A model generated the notes under the pieces. The model was not told where the DNA came from and ran no database searches. It saw nothing but the letters and a program-made list of their open reading frames with translations. A stretch of 58,648 nucleotides of DNA, filler included, from Sphacelaria rigidula (Eukaryota), in the NCBI GenBank assembly GCA_964200075.2. It is 9 parts of 9 records of this genome, joined end to end, with 100 filler letters (N's around TTAATTAATTAA, not from the genome) between each part and the next. Parts side by side here need not be neighbours in the genome. Positions count along the whole stretch, not along the records: positions 32,641 to 39,067 come from CAXNAA020020132.1; 8 more parts are not named here. One strand, given 5' to 3'. The position numbers and the translations under genes are program-made. Positions 11,685 to 57,693 of the stretch are shown piece by piece; the first letter of the stretch is position 1; every line of letters starts with the position of its first letter.

Positions 11685-12635
11685 TCAAGCCCCAAGCTTG
11701 CTTTGCTCACTCTCATGACGAAGATAATACCTCCTTGCAGCGGTGAGCATGCAAGGTGTGTCCCCAATCACGCTCTGGTCCGGCGGCCACAAGCAACCTG
11801 GACCTTTGTCGCTCAGCGCTAGCTCATCGCAGCAACTTGGCTTCGCGCTTCCAACAGCAGCGGCAGCAGCGGATGGATCAAGTATTCCCGCTTCAACCAC
11901 CACCTCCTGCCCAGCGCACTCCTGAACGGCCGCAGCGGCAGCTGAGCTGCCTGCAGTCCGCTCAAGCTGCGCGGCATGTTCGCCCTCTCGAACAGCAATA
12001 CGAGCAGCATCCGAACCAATGCTCACCGTGGTACTGTCGGCAGGCGCGCTCTCATGCCTACCCGTTTTCACAGACACGTGCTGCGTCTCCTTCCCGCTCT
12101 GCACAGGGCAAACAGCTGCCCTGTATCGTTGTTTCAAACGCGCAGCACCTACTGCACGTTCGGCGGGTGCACTGTCGGGCCTGTTCCCTCGGGCAGACAC
12201 ATGTTTCCCGGCTGTCACAGGGGAAACAGCTGCCCTGTATCGTTGCTTCAAACGCGCAGCACCTACTGCACGTTCCGCGGGTGCACTGTCGCGCCTGTCC
12301 CCTCGGGAAGACACATGCTTCTCGGGTGTCACAGGGCAAGCAGCTCCACCGGACGGCGCATTCTTGCGCAACGCGAAAAGCAACTGCTCGTCCTCAACAT
12401 CATACTCATGATTCAAGAACGTGTCACACAGACATATCACAAAATGTTTCGGCATGAGCTCAGAAACTGCTGCCACCTCGAAGAGGTTTGTCCACCGCGC
12501 GTTCACCTGCTCTACATATCGCAAATATTGCTCGTATTTGCGTAAAAACTCGGCCGATTTCTCGCTCGAAAACTTGCGGCCGTAGTACGGCATCTCCACC
12601 CAGTACAGGAACAACACGACCATCGACGATGGCAT
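11685..12635 (-). CDS. Gag-like ORF of the retroelement (316 aa) with internal 38-aa repeats
   Basis: N-terminus (AEFLRKYEQYLRYVEQVNA...VAAVSELMP...EQLLFALRKNA) resembles gypsy-type Gag N-termini as I recall them; intronless ORF in a TE context. Confidence 0.45.
   Translation of the reverse strand: MPSSMVVLFLYWVEMPYYGRKFSSEKSAEFLRKYEQYLRYVEQVNARWTNLFEVAAVSELMPKHFVICLCDTFLNHEYDVEDEQLLFALRKNAPSGGAACPVTPEKHVSSRGDRRDSAPAERAVGAARLKQRYRAAVSPVTAGKHVSARGNRPDSAPAERAVGAARLKQRYRAAVCPVQSGKETQHVSVKTGRHESAPADSTTVSIGSDAARIAVREGEHAAQLERTAGSSAAAAAVQECAGQEVVVEAGILDPSAAAAAVGSAKPSCCDELALSDKGPGCLWPPDQSVIGDTPCMLTAARRYYLRHESEQSKLGA
12030..12347 (-). repeat. In-frame 114-bp tandem repeat (~2.7 copies) inside the gag-like ORF
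   Basis: ACAGGG.AA.CAGCT.CC at ~12103, ~12217 and ~12331; encodes HVS.RG.R.DSAPAERAVGAARLKQRYRAAV.PV. Confidence 0.85.
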
Positions 12636-16524: not shown

Positions 16525-16785
16525 GAATCGTGTGAGTTGAAATTTCATGACAGAGGTGTCCCAGGGGTAGTGTGAACTGACCACCCCGCAAACCTTGGAA
16601 AATGGGGCTCATGAATAAATTAAAAAAAAAAAGTGAGAATCGAAACTCGATACTCGATGTTGATTCAGATGAGAACATTCTCCACTTTTCAGCCGGTGAA
16701 TTTCGATTAGCAGAAGCGACGATTCAAATCGTGATCTTTTTTGGAACTCTTGATACGTACTTATCTTCAACACTGGTTTTAAATG

Positions 16786-16786
<1 letters not shown>

Positions 16787-16829
<43 letters not shown>
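16787..16829. repeat. (CA)n microsatellite
   Basis: Direct observation. Confidence 0.95.
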
Positions 16830-16831
<2 letters not shown>

Positions 16832-16944
16832 TCCGATCATTCATTTTCGATTTCGGTTTCGGTTTCAGTTTTACGCTTCCGTTTCCATTTCGCTCTTGTG
16901 TGTATCTGTTTGTTTGTTTCTTCTTTTTCCAAAAAAAAACTTAG

Positions 16945-17135
16945 GGGAAAACGAGGGAGAAGGCAAGTTCGCACGGTGGATCAGCGAAGGGGGAGCCCTT
17001 GACGTGGTTATGATGCCAGGACCTACGCCGGGGGCTGTGTTTCGCCAGTACGCCGACGTGACTGGAAAACCGGAACTGCCTCCGATGTTTAGCCTGGGCT
17101 TTCACCAGTGTCGATGGAACTACCGCGACGAGCAG
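16945..17135 (+). CDS. GANAB: Glucosidase II alpha subunit (GH31), internal exon B
   Basis: RWISEGGALDV...GPTP..VFRQYADVTGKPELPPMFSLGFHQCRWNYRDEQ; TAG acceptor in phase 1 matches exon A; GTACAC donor in phase 0. Confidence 0.92.
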
Positions 17136-17739
17136 GTACACAAAAAAAGAAGAATAATCAGTTATAGTGGGTGTACGTATATCGTACTGTAGGTTTTGAG
17201 AGCAATCGTTTTTTCAGGAGATATCGGGATATTGAGAGAGGGTGGTTGGCGTTGACACATCTGTGTACATGGTATTTGACACGTCTACAGTAAAAACTAT
17301 ATATTTTCATCTCCCAGCTGGACATGAGAGAAAGAACAAAAAATCATATATTTTGTGAAAATAAATATTCAGATATTTTCCGTGTGTGTGTGTGTGTGTG
17401 AGAGAGTGTGTTCATCGTCACCACCCCCTCTTAACCCTTTGACCGCCAGCATACTGTATGTTTAGGGTCGGAATATATTTTGAAAGAAAGGAAAGAGATC
17501 GACATTTACCCTTCGTAAATGTGTATCCGTCGAAATAGTACACGAGAGGGGTCAGGTAAAATTGATCTTCTTGACTGATTTCAATTATTCATGTGGAACA
17601 TACATATATACAGTATGTGTGTGTAAATAATATGTATCCTCATTTCACTCGTGTTGTTTGTATCAAATGCAATAGATTTTTTTTTCTATGATTTATTCAT
17701 TGATTTATTCTTTTGTCGTTTTTTTGTTTTTTTGCAAAG

Positions 17740-30920: not shown

Positions 30921-31409
30921 TACAAAGCCTGGAAGGAGCACGCCGGGTTTTCGCCGGACCAGGCTCGCACTCGATCAGCCAGCGCGAAGCACCGTGGTGT
31001 GTTCGACAGGTCACAAGACGGGGCGAGGGGGAGGGGGCGTGCGTAGTTCGTGGTGATTTCACAAGCCCAACGGGACTTCAGCAGTAGCCAGCGCCTGAGA
31101 GACTTACCGGCAGCCGGAAGCTAGGCGCTGGGCTCTTACCCGCAATTACACCTAGTATATTCTTGGAACAGGGGGGGAAGGAGGGGGGGGGTTGATACTG
31201 AGATATGTTCAGCCATTGTTTGGTATACGGGAAATGATGATCTACCGCTTTTTATTTGGTGCCGGTGTGTGTCTGTGCAACGGTATGTGTTCGATTATTG
31301 CCCGGACCCTTGATTTTCACTCTGTATCGGCGGACATGGACATGGACACAAACTCTCGGTGCTCGTTTGCCTGTTTGCTTGTTTACGTGCGTTGCTTCGT
31401 CTTGAAAAG

Positions 31410-31502
31410 CCGTTTTCGCCGGAGGAGCACTCGGCGTTCCTCGATGCGATGGAGAGGTATGGGCAGGAGAGCACGGGAAATGAGTGGGAAAAGATTGCAC
31501 AG
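31410..31502 (+). CDS. Exon encoding the first half of a Myb/SANT domain
   Basis: PFSPEEHSAFLDAMERYG...WEKIAQ fits (W/F)T.EEH..FL.A...YG...W.KIA; AAG acceptor, GTGAAT donor. Confidence 0.75.
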
Positions 31503-31769: not shown

Positions 31770-32460
31770 ATCATAACCTAGACATGAAATGTACAGACAG
31801 AGCTAACCATGCCTTGTTTTTAACCTACCATAACACAGCCCGGACATGGGCATGTACGGAGCTAACCATCTTTTTTATTTGACCTACCGTAGCACAGCCC
31901 GGACATGGACATGGAATAACGAACATCACCATCCTTTTTCTTCAACCTACTACCATAACACAGCCCGGACATAGACATGAAATGAGGAAGCCAACCACTA
32001 CTTTTTCGTTAACCTACCATGACACAGCTAGGACATGGAGATGGAATAGCGAAGCTAACAACTTTCCTCCTCGAACCTACCATAACGCAGCCCGGACATG
32101 AAGATGAAGTGACGAGGCTCGTCACTTCTTTCTTCAATCTACCATAACATCGCTCAGACATGGATATGGAGTAATGGAGCTAGCCATCCTTTTCCTTTGA
32201 CCTACCATAACACAGCCTGGAGATGGACATGAAACACAGAAGCTAACCACTTTTTTCTTCAACTTACCATATAACACATCCCGGGCATAGACGTGGAATA
32301 AATAAGCTAACCATCCTTTTCTTTTACCCTCCATAACGCAGTCCGGACAAAGACATGGAATGACCAAGTCAACCGCTCGTTTTTCAACTTACCATAACAC
32401 AGCCCGGACATGGACATGAAAAACGAAGCCAACCGTAATTTTTGCGTTCACCTGAACACA
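31770..32460. repeat. Minisatellite, ~62-bp unit, ~10-11 copies
   Basis: Core AACCTACCATAACACAGCCCGGACATGGACATG recurs every ~59-65 bp. Confidence 0.9.
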
Positions 32461-32640: not shown

Positions 32641-33644
32641 GTGGGGAAAGCCCTGTTTTAGGCTTGAACTTCATCTCGGAGTTAAACCTCAATTCGCACA
32701 ATTTGTTCGTAAATATTTCGCACAATCCTCTTCCAGCTGAGGCTGGCAAGAGTGAGGAACTGCACCCCAAGTCGACGTCGTGTACCCGCCAAGCATTTGA
32801 ATTTCACGCAACACAACCAGGCGAATGCTGATACCATGGCGGCGTCAGAGAGGTCCTCTGATTGCGATGCCGAGCGTTGTTACTTCGTGAATGGTCCAAT
32901 GCGATGAGCATGGCACTTATGATCGATGTCCCACTTTGCTTGTTAGGGTATATTGATTGTGTGCTGGCTGTGGCCGTGGTGGCGAAGCTGGGGGTGGCTG
33001 CCTTTCGTTCCGCTATGAAATTTGAAGAGACACGTCGGTTTTCAGAGTGGAGAGTTCCAAATGAGACTCACTCTCGAAACTTCGCTGTGAAAAACTTTTG
33101 ATAGTGGTACGTGCGCCGTAACTGGCTATTTTTTGCTTTCACTCTGACTCTAAGATGCGAAGAAACATTTTTCGGAACTCTCCATTGTCGTCGTAGGTTA
33201 AGATAATCGTGTGAGCACAAACACACATACATGCGACCTGAGCCCGACAATTGTAAGGAAAACTGTGAGGACCTTCAGAGTCAAGCACTGATGTCATTGT
33301 ACACTCGCCCCGCCGTGATGCAGTCACGGTAGCAGCTCTCGGCTTCTCACAAGACATGAGGCCGGTTCCCCTCTGCTTCTTGAAGCGCGTTTAGGTTGTG
33401 AGATAAACGCATCACGAACCTGTTTGTCACCAAGAACCTGTGATAGTGGTCCCTTCACTTTTCCTTTTGACACGAATTTTCGTCGCATTTGCTTGTTAAA
33501 TACTCCAGACGTTTGCTGCACGGGTCAGCTGATACATGCGCTCGGGTGTGTGGCGGTGTGGATTGTAGCAGCATCGAGGCTCCCACGCCCTATGTCGTGC
33601 TCTTAGTACAGTCGTGGAGAGATGCCTACTCTATGTTCCCGCAG

Positions 33645-36003
33645 GGATTTTCCGACAAGGGCACAGTGTGGCGGGTAGCTAGAAGGTGGATTTTTACTCC
33701 ACACACGCGCGGGCTGTCATGGTCCATGTGAAAAACAAGAGGTGCGGTGAGGAGGGCTGCTCCACAAGGCCGTCATTCTGTGTAGCGGGTAGAGGGAAGG
33801 CGGAGTTTTGTCCCACGCACGCTCGGGCTGGCATGGTCACTGCGAGAAACAAGAGGTGCAGCGAGGAGGTCTGCTTCACATGGCCGTCATTCGGTGTGGC
33901 GGGTATCGGAAAGGCGGAGTTCTGCGCCACACACGCGCGGGCTGGCATGGTTCATGTGAAGAACAAAAGGTACGGCAAGGATGGCTGCTCCACGAAGCCG
34001 TCATTCGGTGTAGTGGATAGTGGAAAGGCGGAGCTCTGCGTCAAATACGCTCGGGCTGGCATGGTCAATGTGAAACGCAAGAGGAGCGGCGGAGAAAGCT
34101 GCTCCACGAGGTCGTCGTTTGGTGTGGCGGGTAGCGGAAGGGCGGAGGTCTGCGCCACACAAGCTCGGGCTGGCATGGTTAGTCTGAAAAACAGGAGGTG
34201 CAGCGAGGCGGGTTGCTTCACATGCCCGTCAGTCGGTGTAGCGGGTAGCGGGAAGGCGGAGTTCTGCGCTACGCACGCTCGGGCTGGCATGGTCAGTGTG
34301 AACAGCAAGAAGTGCAGCGAGGAGGGCTGCTCCACAAGGCCGTCATTCGGTGTAGCGAGTAGTGGAAAGGCGGAGCTCTGCGCCAAACACGCTCGGGCTG
34401 GCATGGTCGATGTGAAACACAATAGGTGCGGCGAGGATGGCTGTTCCACAAGGCCATCAGTCGGTGTAGCGGGTAGCGGGAAGGCGGAGTTCTGCGCTAC
34501 GCACGCTCGGGCTGGCATGGTCAATGTGAAAAGCAAGAAGTGCAGCAAGGAGGCTGCTCCACATGCCCGTCATTCGGTGTAGCGGGTAGCGGGAAGGCGG
34601 AGTTCTGCGCCTAACACGCTCGGGCTGGCATGGTCGATGTGAAACACAATAGGTGCGGCGAGGAGGGCTGTTCCACAAGGCCGTCATTCGGTGTAGCGGG
34701 TAGCGGGAAGGCGGAGTTCTGCGCCAAACACGCTCGGGCTGGCATGATCAGTGTGAACAGCAAGAGATGCGGCGAGGAGGGCTGCTTCACGTGGCCGTCA
34801 GTCGGTGTAGCGGGTAGCGGGAAGGCGGAGTTCTGCGCCACACACGTGCGGGCTGGCATGGTCAATGTAAAAAGCAAGAGATGCGGCGAGGAGGGCTGCT
34901 TCACGTGGCCGTCATTCGGTGTAGCGGATAGCGGGAAGGCGGAGGTCTGCGCCACGCATTTTCGGGCTGACATGGTCTACATGAACAGCAAGAGGTGCGA
35001 TGAGGTTGGCTGCTCCACATGCCCGTCATTCGGTGTAGCGGATAGCGAGAAGGCGGAGTTTTGCGCCAAACACGCTCGGGCTGGCATGGTCGATGTGAAA
35101 CACAACAGGTGGGGCGGAGAGGGCTGCTTCACTAGGCCGTCATACGGTGTGGCCGGTAGCAGGAAGGGGGAGTTCTGCGCCACGCATGCTCGGGCTGGCA
35201 TGGTCTACGTGAGCAGCAAGAGGTGCGATGGGGTTGGCTGCTCCACAATTCCGTCATTCGGTGTAGCAGGTAGCGGGAAATCGAAGTTCTGCATCACGCA
35301 CGCTCGGGCTGGCATGGTCGATGTGAAAAACAAGAGGTGCGGCGAAAAGGGCTGCTCCACGAGGCCATCATTCGGTGTAGCTGGTAGCGGGGAGGCGGAG
35401 TTCTGCGCCAAACACGCTCGGGTTGGCATGGTGGAGGCAAGAACAACCACGCACGGAAGGGGGGGTAGTAGAAAGCCCAGTCATTCGTCGGGTGCCGGTC
35501 GCAACGCAAGCAACGGTGGTCGCAGGGTTGAGATCCGCCGTAGCTCGTGCGCCAGTCGTACTAGGCGAGGCGGTATAGACTCGACGACCTCGCCGCCGGC
35601 CGCCTCGAGACAGCCCGCCAGCGCTATGGCAGCAGATGGGACTTCGCGGGATAGGGTAGCGAGGCGCATGAAAGTGGAAATGGAGATGACTCTCCCCGCC
35701 GCGCGTGTTTCTGAAGGGATAACGAGCAGCGAGCTAGCTGCTGCACGATCGAGCCTTAGTTGTAGCGTGGCCAACGGCAACTCTATCAGCATCGAAGACC
35801 CGAGCTGCGGTAGCAGCATCGCCAGTGGGAGGAGAAGCGTCAAGCGGCTACGTGGAGTAGCGCCGGTGGAAGTGGCATTTGGTGTGGCAACGGCGGCTCA
35901 TGTGAGGTCTGTAGAGGAGGGCGACGATGTGAAGTTTGAGTTAGGGGTGTCTGCGCCTTCTGGCCACGTTTCCGCGGTGATATCCAGCGGGCGAAAGAAG
36001 TAG
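33645..36003 (+). pseudogene. EsV-1-7 cysteine-rich repeat protein gene, disrupted (ORFs 33686-34582 and 34630-36003)
   Basis: 15 repeats of KRCxxxGCxTxPSFGVAGSGKAEFCAxHARAGMVxVxx (C-x4-C-x16-C-x2-H); 1-nt deletion at ~34552, in-frame TAA at 34612-34614, lost Cys/His in units 3, 4 and 13; possible CAG acceptor at 33642-33644. Confidence 0.88.
33737..35445 (+). repeat. Coding tandem array, 15 x 114 bp (EsV-1-7 repeats)
   Basis: GCTCGGGCTGGCATGGTC and CCGTCATTCGGTGTAGCGGG recur with a 114-bp period. Confidence 0.95.
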
Positions 36004-36424
36004 CTTTATGAGTCCATCTGTACATGTGGGTATTGCCAGCTGACGTTGGCGTGGTGCTGTTAGGCGACGATTTGCCGTATTTGTGCGGGTTTATACGACT
36101 ACGATACATCAAGTTTTGGGTTAGTATGGGCTGTGTGGTGCTGCTCCGTTGGGTGATGAGTGGGGAAGACGAGGACGACGAATAATCGCTCACGCATCGT
36201 TGTGTAGCGGGATATTTTGATGTGCCTGGCAGCAAGACGACGAGCGGAGTGACATTGAATATGTCTAGCGCTGGATAACGTCGACGTGGACAACACAATG
36301 TTTTCATGAAATTGAGAGTTACAGATGAGATTGAGAGTCAACAGTTTATTCGAAAGACGATCACATGCACATATCAAACTGTTTCACGACACGTTGACGT
36401 ATAGCATAATAAGAGGCTAGTTAA

Positions 36425-36526
36425 CCCTTAGACCGCGAGGGTAGGTCACCTGCTGAATCGACATCAATTTTCACTTGAAAAAAGTATGCGTGATCCAGAT
36501 GGACTACTTGCACTGCGGGCAAAGGG
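36425..36526. mobile_element. 102-bp piggyBac-like miniature element
   Basis: TTAA-CCCTTAGACCGC...GCGGGCAAAGGG-TTAA; TTAA at 36421-36424 and 36527-36530. Confidence 0.65.
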
Positions 36527-36579
36527 TTAACCGTCGTTAGGCTTCGTTTTATAATGGCAGGCACAATTTTACAAGTATC

Positions 36580-36763
36580 GCTACCCCTAATCCCAACCCA
36601 AGGCATACCGAGAACCCTCGCGTGCACAGAACGCATTTTTTGTTGAAATCGGCGCAACAGGCGCCGATTTGGGGTCTACCAAGGCTGCACTTCGTCTAGG
36701 GAATGTATGTTCCGCCCTTGCCCGAGGGTTCTTGGTATGCGTTGGGTTGGGGTTAGGGGTAGC
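36580..36763. repeat. Inverted repeat with ~41-bp arms (MITE-like; no TSD seen)
   Basis: GCTACCCCTAATCCCAACCCAAGGCATACCGAGAACCCTCG (36580-36620) pairs with 36723-36763. Confidence 0.75.
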
Positions 36764-38844
36764 ACAGCGAGCTGGAACGGAGGAACCAAAGATAGACTGC
36801 AGCCATCGACGTTTACGAGTAGCTATTGTGTGATGTGGTATATGATGTCATCGCGAGACGAATGCGGTGATGGAATAAGTAAAGAAATAGCTATATATCG
36901 CTCGTACCGTACGTTTCAGTCGTGATTTTCGGGCGTTCCTCTCTTTTTCTTTTATTGCTTTGTTATTTATTGCTCCCCATCTTGTAACGTACGGGAACAT
37001 GTGTGAGCCAAGGCGCGTGGGCTCTGTTCCCAGTAGAGTAGGCATCAGTAGTTGTGGAAGAGCATCCCTCACAGAGGCTGCACTTCTGTAACCAATGATC
37101 AGTTCGTGAGAAGGTTGTTTTTAGCGAATCCAACCGACGTTGGATGTGGTTCAAGCCCCGCACCACCCCGGAATCCAGTACAACTGATCCGGGGTGTCGA
37201 CGCGCGATTAAGGTAACTAGGCAATCGTTCTCCAGTCTAACTGCGATCCCGGGAAAACGACAGCGACCGTACTTGTCTGCTGCTTCTGTAATTCGAAAGG
37301 GCACTACAGATCCTTTTTCCTTTCCGAATGGATAGAGTTTTCCCCTGCTTATCAGGGTTACTTATCCACTAGATCTGTAACGCGTTTTCTCCTGGACTGC
37401 AATTTTGCAGCTTTTCCTCGTTCCACCTTCAGGCGGATGATGCAGAGGCTTTATTTCTGTTCCGGCCCGTCCAGCCTCCAAACCTCAAATGAATCTTGTT
37501 TAGCCTCATAAATATGGCTAGGGGGGTATTACAGATTTATTGGTCGTTTTCCAGTCGACTAAGTTCCATGTGTCATACTTTGTCATGCTCGGTATCCGAT
37601 GGGTCATACTATATTGTGTGATACAATATGGCTGTCTGCCCTCAACGGTGTTTTCGTGAGATCAAGAGTCTACGATACGATTGAGAGTAGGCTTTTCATG
37701 GCTTTCAGCGGCCGGTTGTGCCTGCATCATTGATGAACAAAACGCTTACCTCGCACATTGAAACAATGTTTCCGTGAAATTGAGCGTTGAAAGTACGATT
37801 GAGAGTAAGGTCTTATATTCACAACATGACTCGCTTTGCCGGTTCCGATAATAAGACGAAAAGTTTACTTGTGTCGCATGTTGAACATTTCTGCCACCTG
37901 TTGCCTGAATGGAATGGCAGAATAATGTTGGAAATGTTGCGCGCTGGCCCACAGGTCGCATTTGTGGAAAATGCACCGTTCAAGATGTCTACAAAGTAGT
38001 GTGAGTCGTGCGCTTCGAGTAAAAGATACGATTAAACCAGGTTGTACCCGAATTCATTCGCAAATGCAGCTGATGCCACCATTCGTCGTGTGGACTTGGG
38101 ACTCGTGGATATCTGAGAATCACTTTTCTGTTCAAACATTTTGCCGCAGATCCCGCCGTTGTTTCTGAAAGCGCAAGTCATCGCGTGTGATATGCTTGCT
38201 GATATCCCGCCTTTTCATGCCGAGAAAAGTCGCAAAACGTGGTGGAACCCGGGATTCTGTTCCATGACCTCACCCTCGATGGCAGCGGATCATAACAAAT
38301 TCTCTTGCACGAAGCCGATTGAGCGCCTCCCGTCTATGAGCTGCAGCAAATCGATTTTGTCAGGGACTCTCGCCAACCGCATCAGATTTCCGAACATGCA
38401 CTCGAAACATGTGCCGACGGACCCATCAAGAATAGCTCATAAACCATCAACACGGGAAAACAAATACTACCCCATCCGTGCCCTCCTCCTTGAGGGACAG
38501 TACGTGGCCTACACAAATCGCTGACTCTGCTCAATTTGATGTCACGCCGAGCGTCGACACTTGAAAAAGATCCGTCTTGCACGTCTCCTGCATAATCCTG
38601 CGGAAATGATTGATCGGGGGCAGCGGCGAAGGTATAGGTGATCGCAAAAGTTAATGGGGCAGGTTAAAGTCGATAAATCGCGCGCTTCAGTACAGCTGGG
38701 CGGATTTCAACAACTTCAACTTAGAAACTAGCGCAAACAGGACGTCCTTCTGTCCCGTGTGAGGATGATGCTTCCAAACGTATCCATTTACTTGGCACCA
38801 CGCGAGGACGATACCGACACATTCAACACTAGGCGGGTACTCAC

Positions 38845-38965
38845 GATCGAAAAGACTTGGACTCATCATGCCGAGCAGCTGGGCACTCTCGACTCCGGCG
38901 ACATTAGACACGACATCCTCCAAGGCCTTGTCGAGCTCGATCGTGTCTCCGTCGGGGAGGTTCGT
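38845..38965 (-). CDS. Probable internal exon of an unidentified gene
   Basis: Pyrimidine tract and CCAG acceptor, GTGAGT donor, only one open frame: TNLPDGDTIELDKALEDVVSNVAGVESAQLLGMMSPSLFD. Confidence 0.5.
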
Positions 38966-39067
38966 CTGGTTCGTGGAAAAGGTGCCAGCGACAGCGGGGG
39001 GAAAGAGACGGTGCGCATCAGGTAGGGGTGCGAGTCAAGAGTAATGATGCATATACATGGGTAGTGC

Positions 39068-55600: not shown

Positions 55601-57693
55601 ATAACGGCTCACTCTGTGTCCTCTCCAGCACTTGAGATAGACGGAGGGGGGGCAGGGAGGGCTGGAGACAGGGGAAGTAGAGACGGCGGATCCGGGAGGG
55701 GATGATGAGGTAAAGACGATTGGGCCGGGAGAGCAGGAAGTAGAGGCGAGGGCACCTCCTCCAGCCGCTCGTCGTCCGCGGCATGTCGCTTGCTAATTCT
55801 AATACTAATGCGTGTGAGAATGATGAAGTAAGAGAAGGTAGAACTCGTGCGCAAACTCGTTCAGAATGTTGAGTCAGAGCCTGGTAGCTATCAAGAAGCC
55901 CGGCAATCGAAGCACGCAAAGATTTGGGATGGAGCCATGTCTGCAGAAGTTGAAGGCTTGATAAGAGCAGGAACGTTCACGTTAGCAGTAAAGATCCCAG
56001 TAGGCTATAATGTGATTGATGCTAGATATGTTTTCAAATAGAAAGCAGACGAAACACGGAAGATGGTGAAGGCCAAGGCTAGGCTTGTAGCGAAGGGCTT
56101 CAAGCAGAAGTATGGTGTGGACTATCTTGAAACTTTCTCGCCTACTGCAAATGCTGCATCGATGCGATTGCTAGTAGCGTTGGCATGCAAGTACAACTTG
56201 AAATTACTCCACTGGGGTATCGAGCAAGCGTTTGTTCAGTCGGAATTGAATCACGAGGTGTTCATGAAGTTGCCTCCTGGCTGCGGTTCGATGTCAGGAA
56301 AGGTTGTCCGTTTGAACAAGAATTTGTACGGATTGAAACAGGCATCTAGAACATTTTACAAGAGGCTAGTGTCGGACCCGAAAAGGGTTGGTTTCTAGCA
56401 GTCTCTGTCTGACCCCTGTGTCCTGCGTTTCATGATGGGAGACGAGGTGGTGGGTATGGTCGTGATTCACGTGACTAATGCCGAGATAGCCCCCCCACAC
56501 AAAGTGCACGGGAGACCGTGCGACAAACCGGCTGCGATCCCACTCTTGGGCTCGGTTGCAGCAATTCCGCCCACATGAAAGGCTCGTAGCAGTCCGAAAT
56601 AAGCTATAACGCCCAATTAAGTCGTGTCGTGGAACACGAAACCAGCTCTAACGGCATTTATGATCATCGCCTCCGTGCACATTTTTGGCCGATTCGGGGG
56701 GGGGCTATCTCGGCAGCAGTCACGTGGAACATTCTGTATGCAGGAACTAAGAGTCTTGCCAAGGTGGTAGTAAAATCGCAAGGCGACTCTCTTCCTACGA
56801 AGAATTTGGGTGAGGTCAAGTTCTTTCTTGGTTGCGCATTTATTCGCGACCGCGAGGCTGGTACGATTGAGATTTCTCAAGAAAGTTACATCAGGAGTGT
56901 TCTCGAGAGATTTAATATTTGTCGCACCAGCTCGATTCCTGCTTCCCTTGCCAACGATAACAGGTCCTTGATGGAGGATAAGGGAGCAGGAGATGTACCG
57001 TTTCGAGAGGTGGTGGGGAGCCTGATGTGGATCACCAACCAGACAAGGCCCGGCATCTCGAATGCTGTGCGGGCGGTGGCGAGGCACTCTCATGAGCAAA
57101 AGAAGAGCCACTGGAAGGCAGCCCAGAACATTCTGAATTATCTTCTGGAAACGCCATATCGAACTTTGAAGTTCAAGCAGGACAGTACGGTAGACGTAGG
57201 CACGCTGGTGTACGTAGATGCCGATTTTGCAAGCAAGGTCACTGACCGTAGATCAGTTTCGGGAGCGTTGTTTTTTGTGGCTGCCATGCTTGTAGTTTGG
57301 ATTTCTAGGACGCAGAAATGAATTTCACAGTCGACTTCTAAAGCAGAGTATCTTGCGATTGGTGATGGTGTGAAAGAGGCTCTGTTTGTGAACGGAATGC
57401 TTCAGCTCTTGAGGCCTAGTGTGAAGCCTTGTAAGATTGAGGTACTTGAGGACAACGAGGGTGCGATTGCGCTTGCAGAGAATCCACTCAGCTCGTGCAG
57501 GAGTAAGCACATTGACGTGAGACACCACTTTCTTAGGAATTTGACCGAGGAGGGTGTGATTGAGATCACGCATGTTGCCAGCGAAGAACAGCATGCGGAC
57601 ATCCTCACGAAGGCTCTGCCGAGAAATCTTTTTGAAGTTCACCGTGACTTTTACCTTGGCATGAGAAATGAGAAGCAGAAGTCTGAGTCGTAA
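52627..57693 (+). pseudogene. Copia gag-pol polyprotein, with multiple stops, frameshifts and insertions
   Basis: GHLRKDC knuckle remnant; protease WYADTGTAFHMT (~54024); FHNIYAH...CTGC; RSDNGGEF, SPQYNSVAER; KARLVAKGFKQKYGVDYLETFSP, LYGLKQAS; YVDADFA, RSKHIDVRHHF, ADILTKAL. Confidence 0.93.
56473..56721. mobile_element. 249-bp MITE with 4-bp TSD ACGT nested in the copia RT
   Basis: GACTAATGCCGAGATAGCCCCCCC...GGGGGGGGCTATCTCGGCAGCAGTC; ACGT at 56469-56472 and 56722-56725. Confidence 0.9.

Follow-up and report, generated by a model that had tools for sequence, protein, structure and literature searches.

Organization of the locus

The DNA analysed here (hereafter the window; 58,648 nt from the Sphacelaria rigidula assembly GCA_964200075.2, filler included) is made of unrelated contigs, about 6.4-6.5 kb each, joined by N spacers. 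Contig CAXNAA020020132.1, delimited by the spacer pattern at 32641..39067 (unstranded; window position 34615 is contig position 1975), is the only true neighbourhood of the gene described below, all features of which lie on the plus strand. Tandem-repeat, ORF and Pfam analyses locate at 33737..35445 an array of 15 units of 38 aa with the signature C-x4-C-x16-C-x2-H. The first unit starts at 33737, and units follow each other at 114 nt, with a single spacing of 113; the tandem repeat score is 2204. Pfam PF19114 (EsV-1-7) matched 7 + 7 stretches in the two ORFs of the region, at 284.9 and 308.4 bits versus a cut-off of 25. The 15 repeats of 38 aa announced in the original prediction are therefore borne out by unit mapping and by PF19114, and its residue lists hold exactly, with R,W,K,R,C,R,R,C,R,W,W,C,R,I,R at position 11 and T,H,N,S,S,D,N,D,S,N,Y,D,Y,D,E at position 35. 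Other Pfam domains gave only sub-cut-off matches in the two ORFs. Neither ORF matches a C2H2 domain, the unit being a 38-aa C-x4-C-x16-C-x2-H module, or a KRAB domain, the search having covered the exon from 33509 onwards. The window copy thus belongs to EsV-1-7 (PF19114), a host gene family of the brown alga.

The array had been described as intronless, and no intron interrupts it; an upstream splice acceptor exists, though. The AG at 33507..33508, kept in 13 of the 13 aligned paralogues, opens the array exon at 33509. A contig of run X7, which we guess to be RNA, is placed from 33507 and carries 45 different letters before that point, as a spliced transcript would. At 32962-33485 cover is absent from runs X5 and X7, which share a study and are both guessed to be RNA, and present in X1 and X2, a weak hint of transcription; the window copy is probably still transcribed. 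A Myb-like exon at 31401-31502 (PF00249, 25.8 bits) was considered as upstream exon and discarded: it sits on C20131, a different contig of the joined window, its splice phase does not lead into the array frame, and manual reading placed 0 of 55 Myb matches on array contigs.

The array is preceded at 33622..33736 by a degenerate first unit, delineated by alignment to paralogues, which hosts the ancestral start codon out of the array frame and an in-frame TAG at 33680-33682. In the alignment, the matching ATG of the paralogues opens an intact first unit. A short deletion in the degenerate unit is common to the window and to paralogues L031-L037. Flanks upstream and downstream are also common to paralogues, hence the family expanded by DNA duplication. 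Spread as a transposon was rejected, since the sharp 5' homology edge at 32712 is specific to the window copy, and six paralogues align beyond it.

The array is followed by a low-complexity tail of 185 aa (35446..36003), delimited by translation and by a tail search that yielded 76 or more matches across the genome. A motif scan identified two psi-K-x-E motifs (35668-35679 and 35929-35940), which we take to be SUMO-type sites, and a KRLR stretch (35842-35853) of the KRxR kind, presumably a nuclear-import-type signal. The psi-K-x-E motif occurs in 82 of 85 complete tails versus 7.4 in shuffled sequences, two copies in 66 versus 0.3, and KRxR in 67 of 85 versus 5.9, the 85 tails being related by descent and hence not independent. 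In named proteins of other brown algae a basic K(K/R)x(K/R) motif was found in 12 of 16, and psi-K-x-E in 6 of 16. The EAR repressor motif LxLxL was set aside, as it occurs in 2 of 85 tails, at chance level. The nuclease motif described below is absent from the low-complexity tail of the window gene.

The array does not form a single reading frame, and a working protein is not supported for the window copy. ORF 1 (33719..34582, starting at the first ATG in frame; 287 aa), located by ORF scan and Pfam in an open frame spanning 33683-34582, covers units 1-7, loses the frame within unit 8, where it stops, and is without tail. ORF 2 (34615..36003, first ATG at 34630; 457 aa), located by the same means, includes units 9-15 and the tail. 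The two are separated by a frameshift, a 1-nt gap at 34552..34553 in unit 8 revealed by the anchor spacing of 113, and by a TAA stop at 34612..34614, also in unit 8, which the ORF scan places in the frame of units 9-15. Units 3, 4 and 13 have in addition lost five putative zinc ligands, 5 of the 52 ligand places of internal units versus about 2.3% family-wide (binomial p = 0.006). With frameshift, stop and lost ligands, the copy is very probably decaying. The co-occurrence of three kinds of damage makes it improbable that the copy is in truth intact, the breaks being errors in the assembly of a tandem array, or that ORF 2 works alone as a protein of 7 units plus tail. Such a reading may appeal to an assembly of short contigs (27,214 contigs), to the fact that among the contigs listed none fully bridges either break under a 31-letter rule, nor covers the TAA stop, and to ORF 2 itself, which has its own ATG and retains every tail motif. 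Yet a 73-nt contig of run X7 is identical to the window across the frameshift gap, its short side of 28 letters being below the 31-letter rule, and an inserted letter at the gap is listed in none of the four runs. Both breaks are likely real, the contig support at the gap being short of the 31-letter rule.

The gene family in the Sphacelaria genome

Being a broken copy, the window locus is of value only as an entry point to the family, which resides on about 130 contigs by manual count from DNA and Pfam searches. The DNA search, in which 40 of 296 candidates were scored, identified arrays on 40 contigs. The Pfam search, in which 150 of 4575 candidates were scored, gave 150 matches located on 93 contigs, one contig being common to both searches. 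All 40 arrays from the DNA search and those of 60 of the other 92 contigs were taken for analysis. The 100 arrays include 1520 units, 6-36 per locus. Breaks after unit 1 affect seven arrays, four of them from the set of 40 taken for DNA likeness; 93 of 100 are unbroken, a count in which arrays ending at a contig end were scored as unbroken, and 60 of the 100 were selected for the highest Pfam scores, a choice that favours intact copies. Intact members are made of 6-36 tandem, putatively zinc-binding C2CH units, followed by a disordered tail, and the net charge per unit is +2.9. The best named homologues are brown algal, topped by Sphacelaria rigidula proteins, and the window gene looks like a host gene by appearance. 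A narrow search with two single-protein queries found no nuclease domain in this genome.

Site-restricted variation and selection

Position 11 has the highest entropy of the unit (3.4 bits; R 23, Q 21, H 12, K 9, L 6 and Y 5% of 1520 units), R, Q, H and K making together 65% of residues. Hydrophobic L, Y, I, W and V are frequent at position 11, and V at position 37. When variability is measured within genes, the ranking is 11, 38, 37 and 35 (0.75, 0.70, 0.61 and 0.53; 92 genes). Position 11 ranks first also in other brown algae (8 genes and 29 units from Pylaiella, Ectocarpus, Scytosiphon, Ascophyllum and Laminaria).

Selection was assessed in 98 paralogues, the window gene being dropped, on 1152 clean internal units of the 1520, a set that leaves out first, last, broken and off-register units. 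Each unit was paired with the nearest unit of the same gene, the tested codon being excluded from the choice, and mismatches at bases 1-2 were compared to those at four-fold sites. This is a counting test, which uses no likelihood model and ignores gene conversion, and intervals on the ratios derive from a gene bootstrap. Ratios to four-fold sites are 2.44 [2.11-2.77] at codon 11, 2.40 [2.00-2.77] at codon 38, 2.10 [1.65-2.63] at codon 37, 1.81 [1.42-2.25] at codon 35 (2.86 at base 1 alone), and 1.39 [1.09-1.74] at codon 30. The putative zinc-ligand codons are at 0.00-0.04, thus C3, C8, C25 and H28 are under strong purifying selection; zinc binding itself is predicted. In a register control using four unit boundaries (1007 units, 97 genes) the ranks stay in 4 of 4, with 11 and 38 on top, and codon 37 drops to about 1.6. 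In the six closest intact paralogues codon 11 is at 2.70, and ligand codons at 0.00-0.11. Codons 11, 35, 37 and 38 are under diversifying selection, and the restriction of variation to few positions, noticed at first in a single array, is family-wide and faster than change at silent sites. Scattered or neutral variable sites, which would have spoken against the original prediction, are not what is observed, the four codons changing at 1.8-2.4 times the four-fold rate.

The window array taken alone departs from the family in part. Codons 35, 38 and 11 are hot, as had been claimed (2.78, 2.48 and 1.88 times four-fold sites); codon 37, included in the same claim, is at 0.84, with K in 9 of 15 units, and is hot only family-wide. 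Codons 4, 5 and 27 are at 1.4-1.6 times four-fold sites. W or C are frequent at position 11 in the window gene and its closest paralogues. A literature search, with most subscription papers beyond its coverage, found no report of site-specific selection in EsV-1-7 repeats.

The four D35 units of the window each directly precede an R11 unit, true as originally counted (4 of 4; p = 0.015 taken alone). Block duplication had been named as the explanation that would undo the original prediction, and block duplication is what the coupling is. The four D35-R11 junctions are one another's nearest copies, with 2-9 differences in 69 nt versus mostly 10-20 for other pairs, and among 1282 algal unit pairs the combination is observed 94 times versus 98.0 +/- 5.9 expected, ranking 1803 of 2147 column pairs. 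In 272 viral pairs the excess is small, 50 versus 41.1 +/- 3.3 (p 0.004; rank 112 of 2147), the relatives not being independent. Positions 35 and 38 of the same unit do covary, ranking 5 in algal and 1 in viral arrays, a covariation which may be structural.

Giant-virus relatives with a nuclease-type domain

A conserved C-terminal domain missed by Pfam was found in 58 of the 120 homologues listed. Over both searches, a nuclease-type C-terminal motif occurs in 91 of 138 unnamed homologues, and in 0 of 48 named eukaryote homologues. The domain is present in 553 or more stretches on viral contigs, of which many derive from giant-virus genomes; 80 of these were kept, corresponding to 71 distinct loci. 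Some of the giant-virus genes joining EsV-1-7 arrays to this domain are named 'Endonuclease' in UniProt. ESM Atlas returned EsV-1-7 clusters only, mostly from Nucleocytoviricota, with low recognition.

The structure of one viral protein was modelled with pLDDT 88, and residues 292-429 were compared to known folds. The domain model matches Vsr (1cw0; Z 9.4, rmsd 2.9, 114 residues aligned), I-Bth0305I (3r3p; Z 8.7, rmsd 3.4, 95 aligned) and NGO0050 (3hrl; Z 8.2), the three scores being close to each other and above the remaining rows. Foldseek on PDB gave weak rows of nuclease fold only (best E 0.02), and on a viral library matches named Endonuclease, EsV-1-7 and C2H2-type proteins. Searches of PDB by sequence gave no match, nucleases included. 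Acidic and His residues, putatively catalytic, are invariant in 70 of 70 viral domains; the comparison with I-Bth0305I is one of fold. According to the model the C-terminal domain of the viral relatives has a Vsr-like fold, and DNA cleavage is predicted. A similar layout is found in I-Bth0305I, an EDxHD homing endonuclease (PDB 3r3p), in which the accessible text of PMC3239194 places N-terminal DNA-binding repeat motifs ahead of a Vsr-like domain. The same portion of that source reports that specificity resides mostly near the cut, with little contribution from distal positions. I-Bth0305I differs in that its repeats are NUMOD and not zinc repeats, and in being intron-encoded in a phage; the window gene, in turn, is without nuclease. 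In our literature search, which had most subscription papers beyond its coverage, no report linking EsV-1-7 repeats to viral nucleases was found.

The repeats of algae and viruses are the same 38-aa unit, since their profiles align in register (E 8.7e-74), and share hot codons 11 and 38, D or N at position 35, and the 35-38 covariation; the nuclease domain is absent from the algal proteins. Across 45 viral genes variability is greatest at position 11, which ranks first, and at 13 and 38, and D or N makes up 98% of position 35. In 18 homogenised arrays of AT-rich viral genes, 13 of them from one clade, codons 11, 13 and 38 are at 2.61, 2.57 and 2.20 times four-fold sites; codons 35 and 37 do not clearly exceed 1. 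Algal and viral sets of hot sites thus differ, position 13 being hot in viruses only and 88% Ser in Sphacelaria arrays. Duplication of whole units is seen in viral arrays, as in the comparison of loci L132 and L133.

Next to the 71 viral loci lies a gene for the major capsid protein in 14 cases, with smaller counts for RNA polymerase subunit 2 (4), a helicase (3) and topoisomerase II (2) (118 of 123 neighbours scanned). Adjacency to capsid genes spans several clades and orientations, a count given with no background computed and drawn from viral catalogues that favour capsid-bearing contigs. Close viral relatives adjoin different genes. Capsid adjacency combined with mobility is the pattern expected of free-standing homing nucleases, and the data suggest that viral array-nuclease genes are mobile in like manner, with putative cleavage and homing activities. 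Evidence from orthologues is mixed. In five nucleases located downstream of a capsid gene, four consecutive units retain Q, K, R and V as their residue 11; in 8 viral orthologue groups, identity at position 11 is only 59%, ninth by contrast, positions 37, 38, 10, 12 and 13 ranking high.

Discussion

The Sphacelaria genes resemble the known EsV-1-7 family (PF19114), which includes IMMEDIATE UPRIGHT, in the repeat itself, in forming a large host family and in carrying no other Pfam domain, the last trait also stated in the available portion of 10.64898/2026.04.27.720984. Figures of 234 family genes for Saccharina latissima and of 335 for Ascophyllum nodosum, and of five repeats in IMM, are given in the accessible part of 10.1101/2024.02.19.579948; EsV-1-7 genes are described as the largest brown-algal orthogroup, including a developmental regulator, in the accessible parts of 10.64898/2026.04.27.720984 and PMC7457493, and their products had been guessed to be zinc-finger transcription factors in that of PMC12629598. 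Family and transcription-factor guess are thus already published; what is new here are the long homogenised arrays, the selected sites and the tail. Sphacelaria arrays differ from IMM in their length and homogeneity and in the double psi-K-x-E tail, and the window copy, besides being broken, numbers 15 units, and its array exon shows no long N-terminal region, IMM orthologues being marked by five repeats and an N-terminal domain of their own. No report of a SUMO-type tail in EsV-1-7 proteins was found in the literature searched, most subscription papers lying beyond its coverage.

KRAB zinc-finger and PRDM9 genes are known for hundreds of paralogues, single-exon arrays, unit shuffling, few fast codons, dead copies and a separate effector. 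KRAB zinc-finger proteins also bind transposon DNA by its sequence and repress it. The likeness with the algal genes concerns this family genetics, including a single-exon array and diversifying selection at few fixed codons; the two differ in the unit, which is a 38-aa C2CH in the alga versus a 28-aa C2H2, and KRAB and SET domains are absent. It is rather probable that intact EsV-1-7 arrays are sequence-reading DNA binders, in a family evolving like KRAB zinc-finger genes, although target, code and geometry are conjectural. The basic array would wind along double-stranded DNA, each unit being held by four putative zinc ligands and a fixed core, and residue 11 together with linker residues 35, 37 and 38 would set the binding preference of the unit. 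Duplication, loss and conversion of units, combined with selected codon changes, could then retarget the protein. The tail would ensure nuclear entry and, if SUMOylated, may recruit chromatin factors and repress the target, resembling the co-repressor route of KRAB zinc-finger proteins. The nucleic-acid target foreseen in the original prediction is favoured because the same repeat is fused to a Vsr-like nuclease in viruses, each unit is positively charged and the tail has nuclear-type motifs; it stays a predicted target.

Fast evolution fits a protein or an RNA ligand equally well, and selection at positions 11, 35, 37 and 38 leaves the ligand unnamed. The array could be a variable receptor for proteins, for example from viruses or oomycetes, or for RNA, the hot sites forming the binding surface. 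The hydrophobic residues frequent at 11, V at 37, and the W or C often found at 11 in the window gene and its closest paralogues would suit such a surface. A receptor of this kind is nonetheless unlikely, as the repeat is fused to a nuclease in viruses and, according to the accessible text of PMC12477816, stands as an N-terminal domain in an Ectocarpus Mariner transposase, and as basic charge, nuclear-type motifs and the prevalence of R, Q, H and K at position 11 point to nucleic acids. It is less plausible still that units clamp or space DNA without reading it, the variable codons being tolerant sites at the surface and the apparent excess of changes being produced by gene conversion over short tracts, by biased mutation or by constraint on four-fold sites. 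Four-fold sites vary indeed from about 0.4 to 1.8 times their own mean, and single ones at codons 9 and 37, beside hot codons, reach 1.6-1.8; differences at codon 35 are 71% transitions at base 1, largely D/N, and conservation of position 11 among viral orthologues is unremarkable. The second base of codon 11, at which any change replaces the residue, differs at 2.5-3.0 times the mean whichever of the four registers is used, more than the silent site that changes fastest (1.7-1.8). At base 1 of the same codon, 75% of differences are transversions versus 43% at four-fold sites, and codons 11 and 38 are hot in the AT-rich viral genes too, all of which speaks against a clamp of this kind. DNA reading by intact arrays is the interpretation that we favour. 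One face shared by positions 35, 37 and 38 and the 11 of the following unit stays a prediction, the structure model of the window array (pLDDT 52) being of too low confidence for use; a fold search of the repeat from it gave a best Z of 2.5.

The accessible portion of PMC12477816 describes transposon silencing in brown algae as 'largely unknown', and Ectocarpus as having no H3K9 or H3K27 methylation and negligible 5mC. Four selected codons, and the tie to viral nucleases with a likely neighbouring target, make both the EsV-1-7 ligand and brown-algal silencing testable with few proteins. A modular reader, if true, would provide a new DNA-targeting scaffold. It is possible, if rather doubtful, that EsV-1-7 units join C2H2 fingers, TALEs and PPRs as a fourth modular and re-programmable reader of DNA, used by viruses to aim selfish nucleases and by algae to silence transposons and endogenous viruses in a SUMO-dependent manner. 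According to this view, residue 11 (plus 13 in viruses) and the 35/37/38 linker would confer a near-independent base preference to each unit. Giant viruses would direct selfish nucleases at conserved genes through their arrays, and brown algae, a lineage without the usual repressive marks, would hold hundreds of silencers, convergent with KRAB zinc-finger genes. TAL effectors and PPR proteins are made of near-identical units which vary at fixed positions and fold as helical hairpins, each TAL unit reading a single base through a fixed code. The algal array, too, has near-identical units with fixed variable positions; TAL effectors, however, feature repeats of 33-35 aa with one adjacent variable pair, versus a 38-aa unit with zinc ligands that varies at codons 11, 35, 37 and 38.

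Start and upstream limit of the array genes

The first unit of the array is frameshifted in the window copy (33622-33736), downstream of the ancestral ATG, and the same frameshift is found in the paralogous loci of the alga (L031-L037); it is common to the entire subfamily. The codons for the zinc ligands (C3, C8, C25 and H28) are conserved in this subfamily despite the frameshifted first unit. Since the damaged unit lies behind the ancestral ATG, the genes of the subfamily must start either at a later ATG within the array, or in an exon not seen. Upstream, the members of the subfamily share a dispersed repeat (32712-33190; 1626 candidates), and the homology of the window copy to its paralogues ends at 32712.

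A single-copy exon on the plus strand (31401-31502), which encodes the first half of a Myb-like domain and is followed by a GT donor, was considered as a piece of the array gene and rejected; it is located on contig C20131, the array on contig C20132. Contigs without relation to one another, each some 6.4 kb long, make up the window; they are joined by eight spacers (6429-52221), in which runs of N flank a 12-base linker, and adjacency across spacers is meaningless.

Variation in unit number and form

Codon 30 of the algal unit exhibits a milder excess of mismatches over silent sites (1.4-1.6), found in all four registers of the unit boundaries. The giant-virus nuclease gene at L132 is nearly identical to those at L133-L135, and differs from them by the exact duplication of one unit. 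L181, L183 and L200 encode the same nuclease domain on variant repeats, which either contain four cysteines or have a first loop that is short, and in which the equivalent of position 11 is still variable. Units of 37, 38 and 39 aa are mixed in the viral arrays of a capsid-adjacent clade (L149-L164), and at L140, L145 and L160. The extra residue sits directly after position 11, and is possibly a second means of tuning. P0122, an EsV-1-7 homologue of 1244 aa, is an array protein with a different, putative nuclease-like domain at its end.

Other repeats and weak matches

A 114-nt sequence repeated 2.2 times within overlapping ORFs (12090-12345) has the same period as the array, but matched no Pfam family and is not EsV-1-7. 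At 31800-32434, a degenerate tandem repeat with a 63-nt unit is present in ten copies, followed by an ATT microsatellite where the contig ends. Matches below the cut-off correspond to pieces of a glycoside hydrolase 31 (16581-17189) and of a copia-type reverse transcriptase (56590-57318). A short, MITE-like element (36420-36507) occurs in very many copies; its summed depth in DNA runs is about 500,000, with many loose ends.
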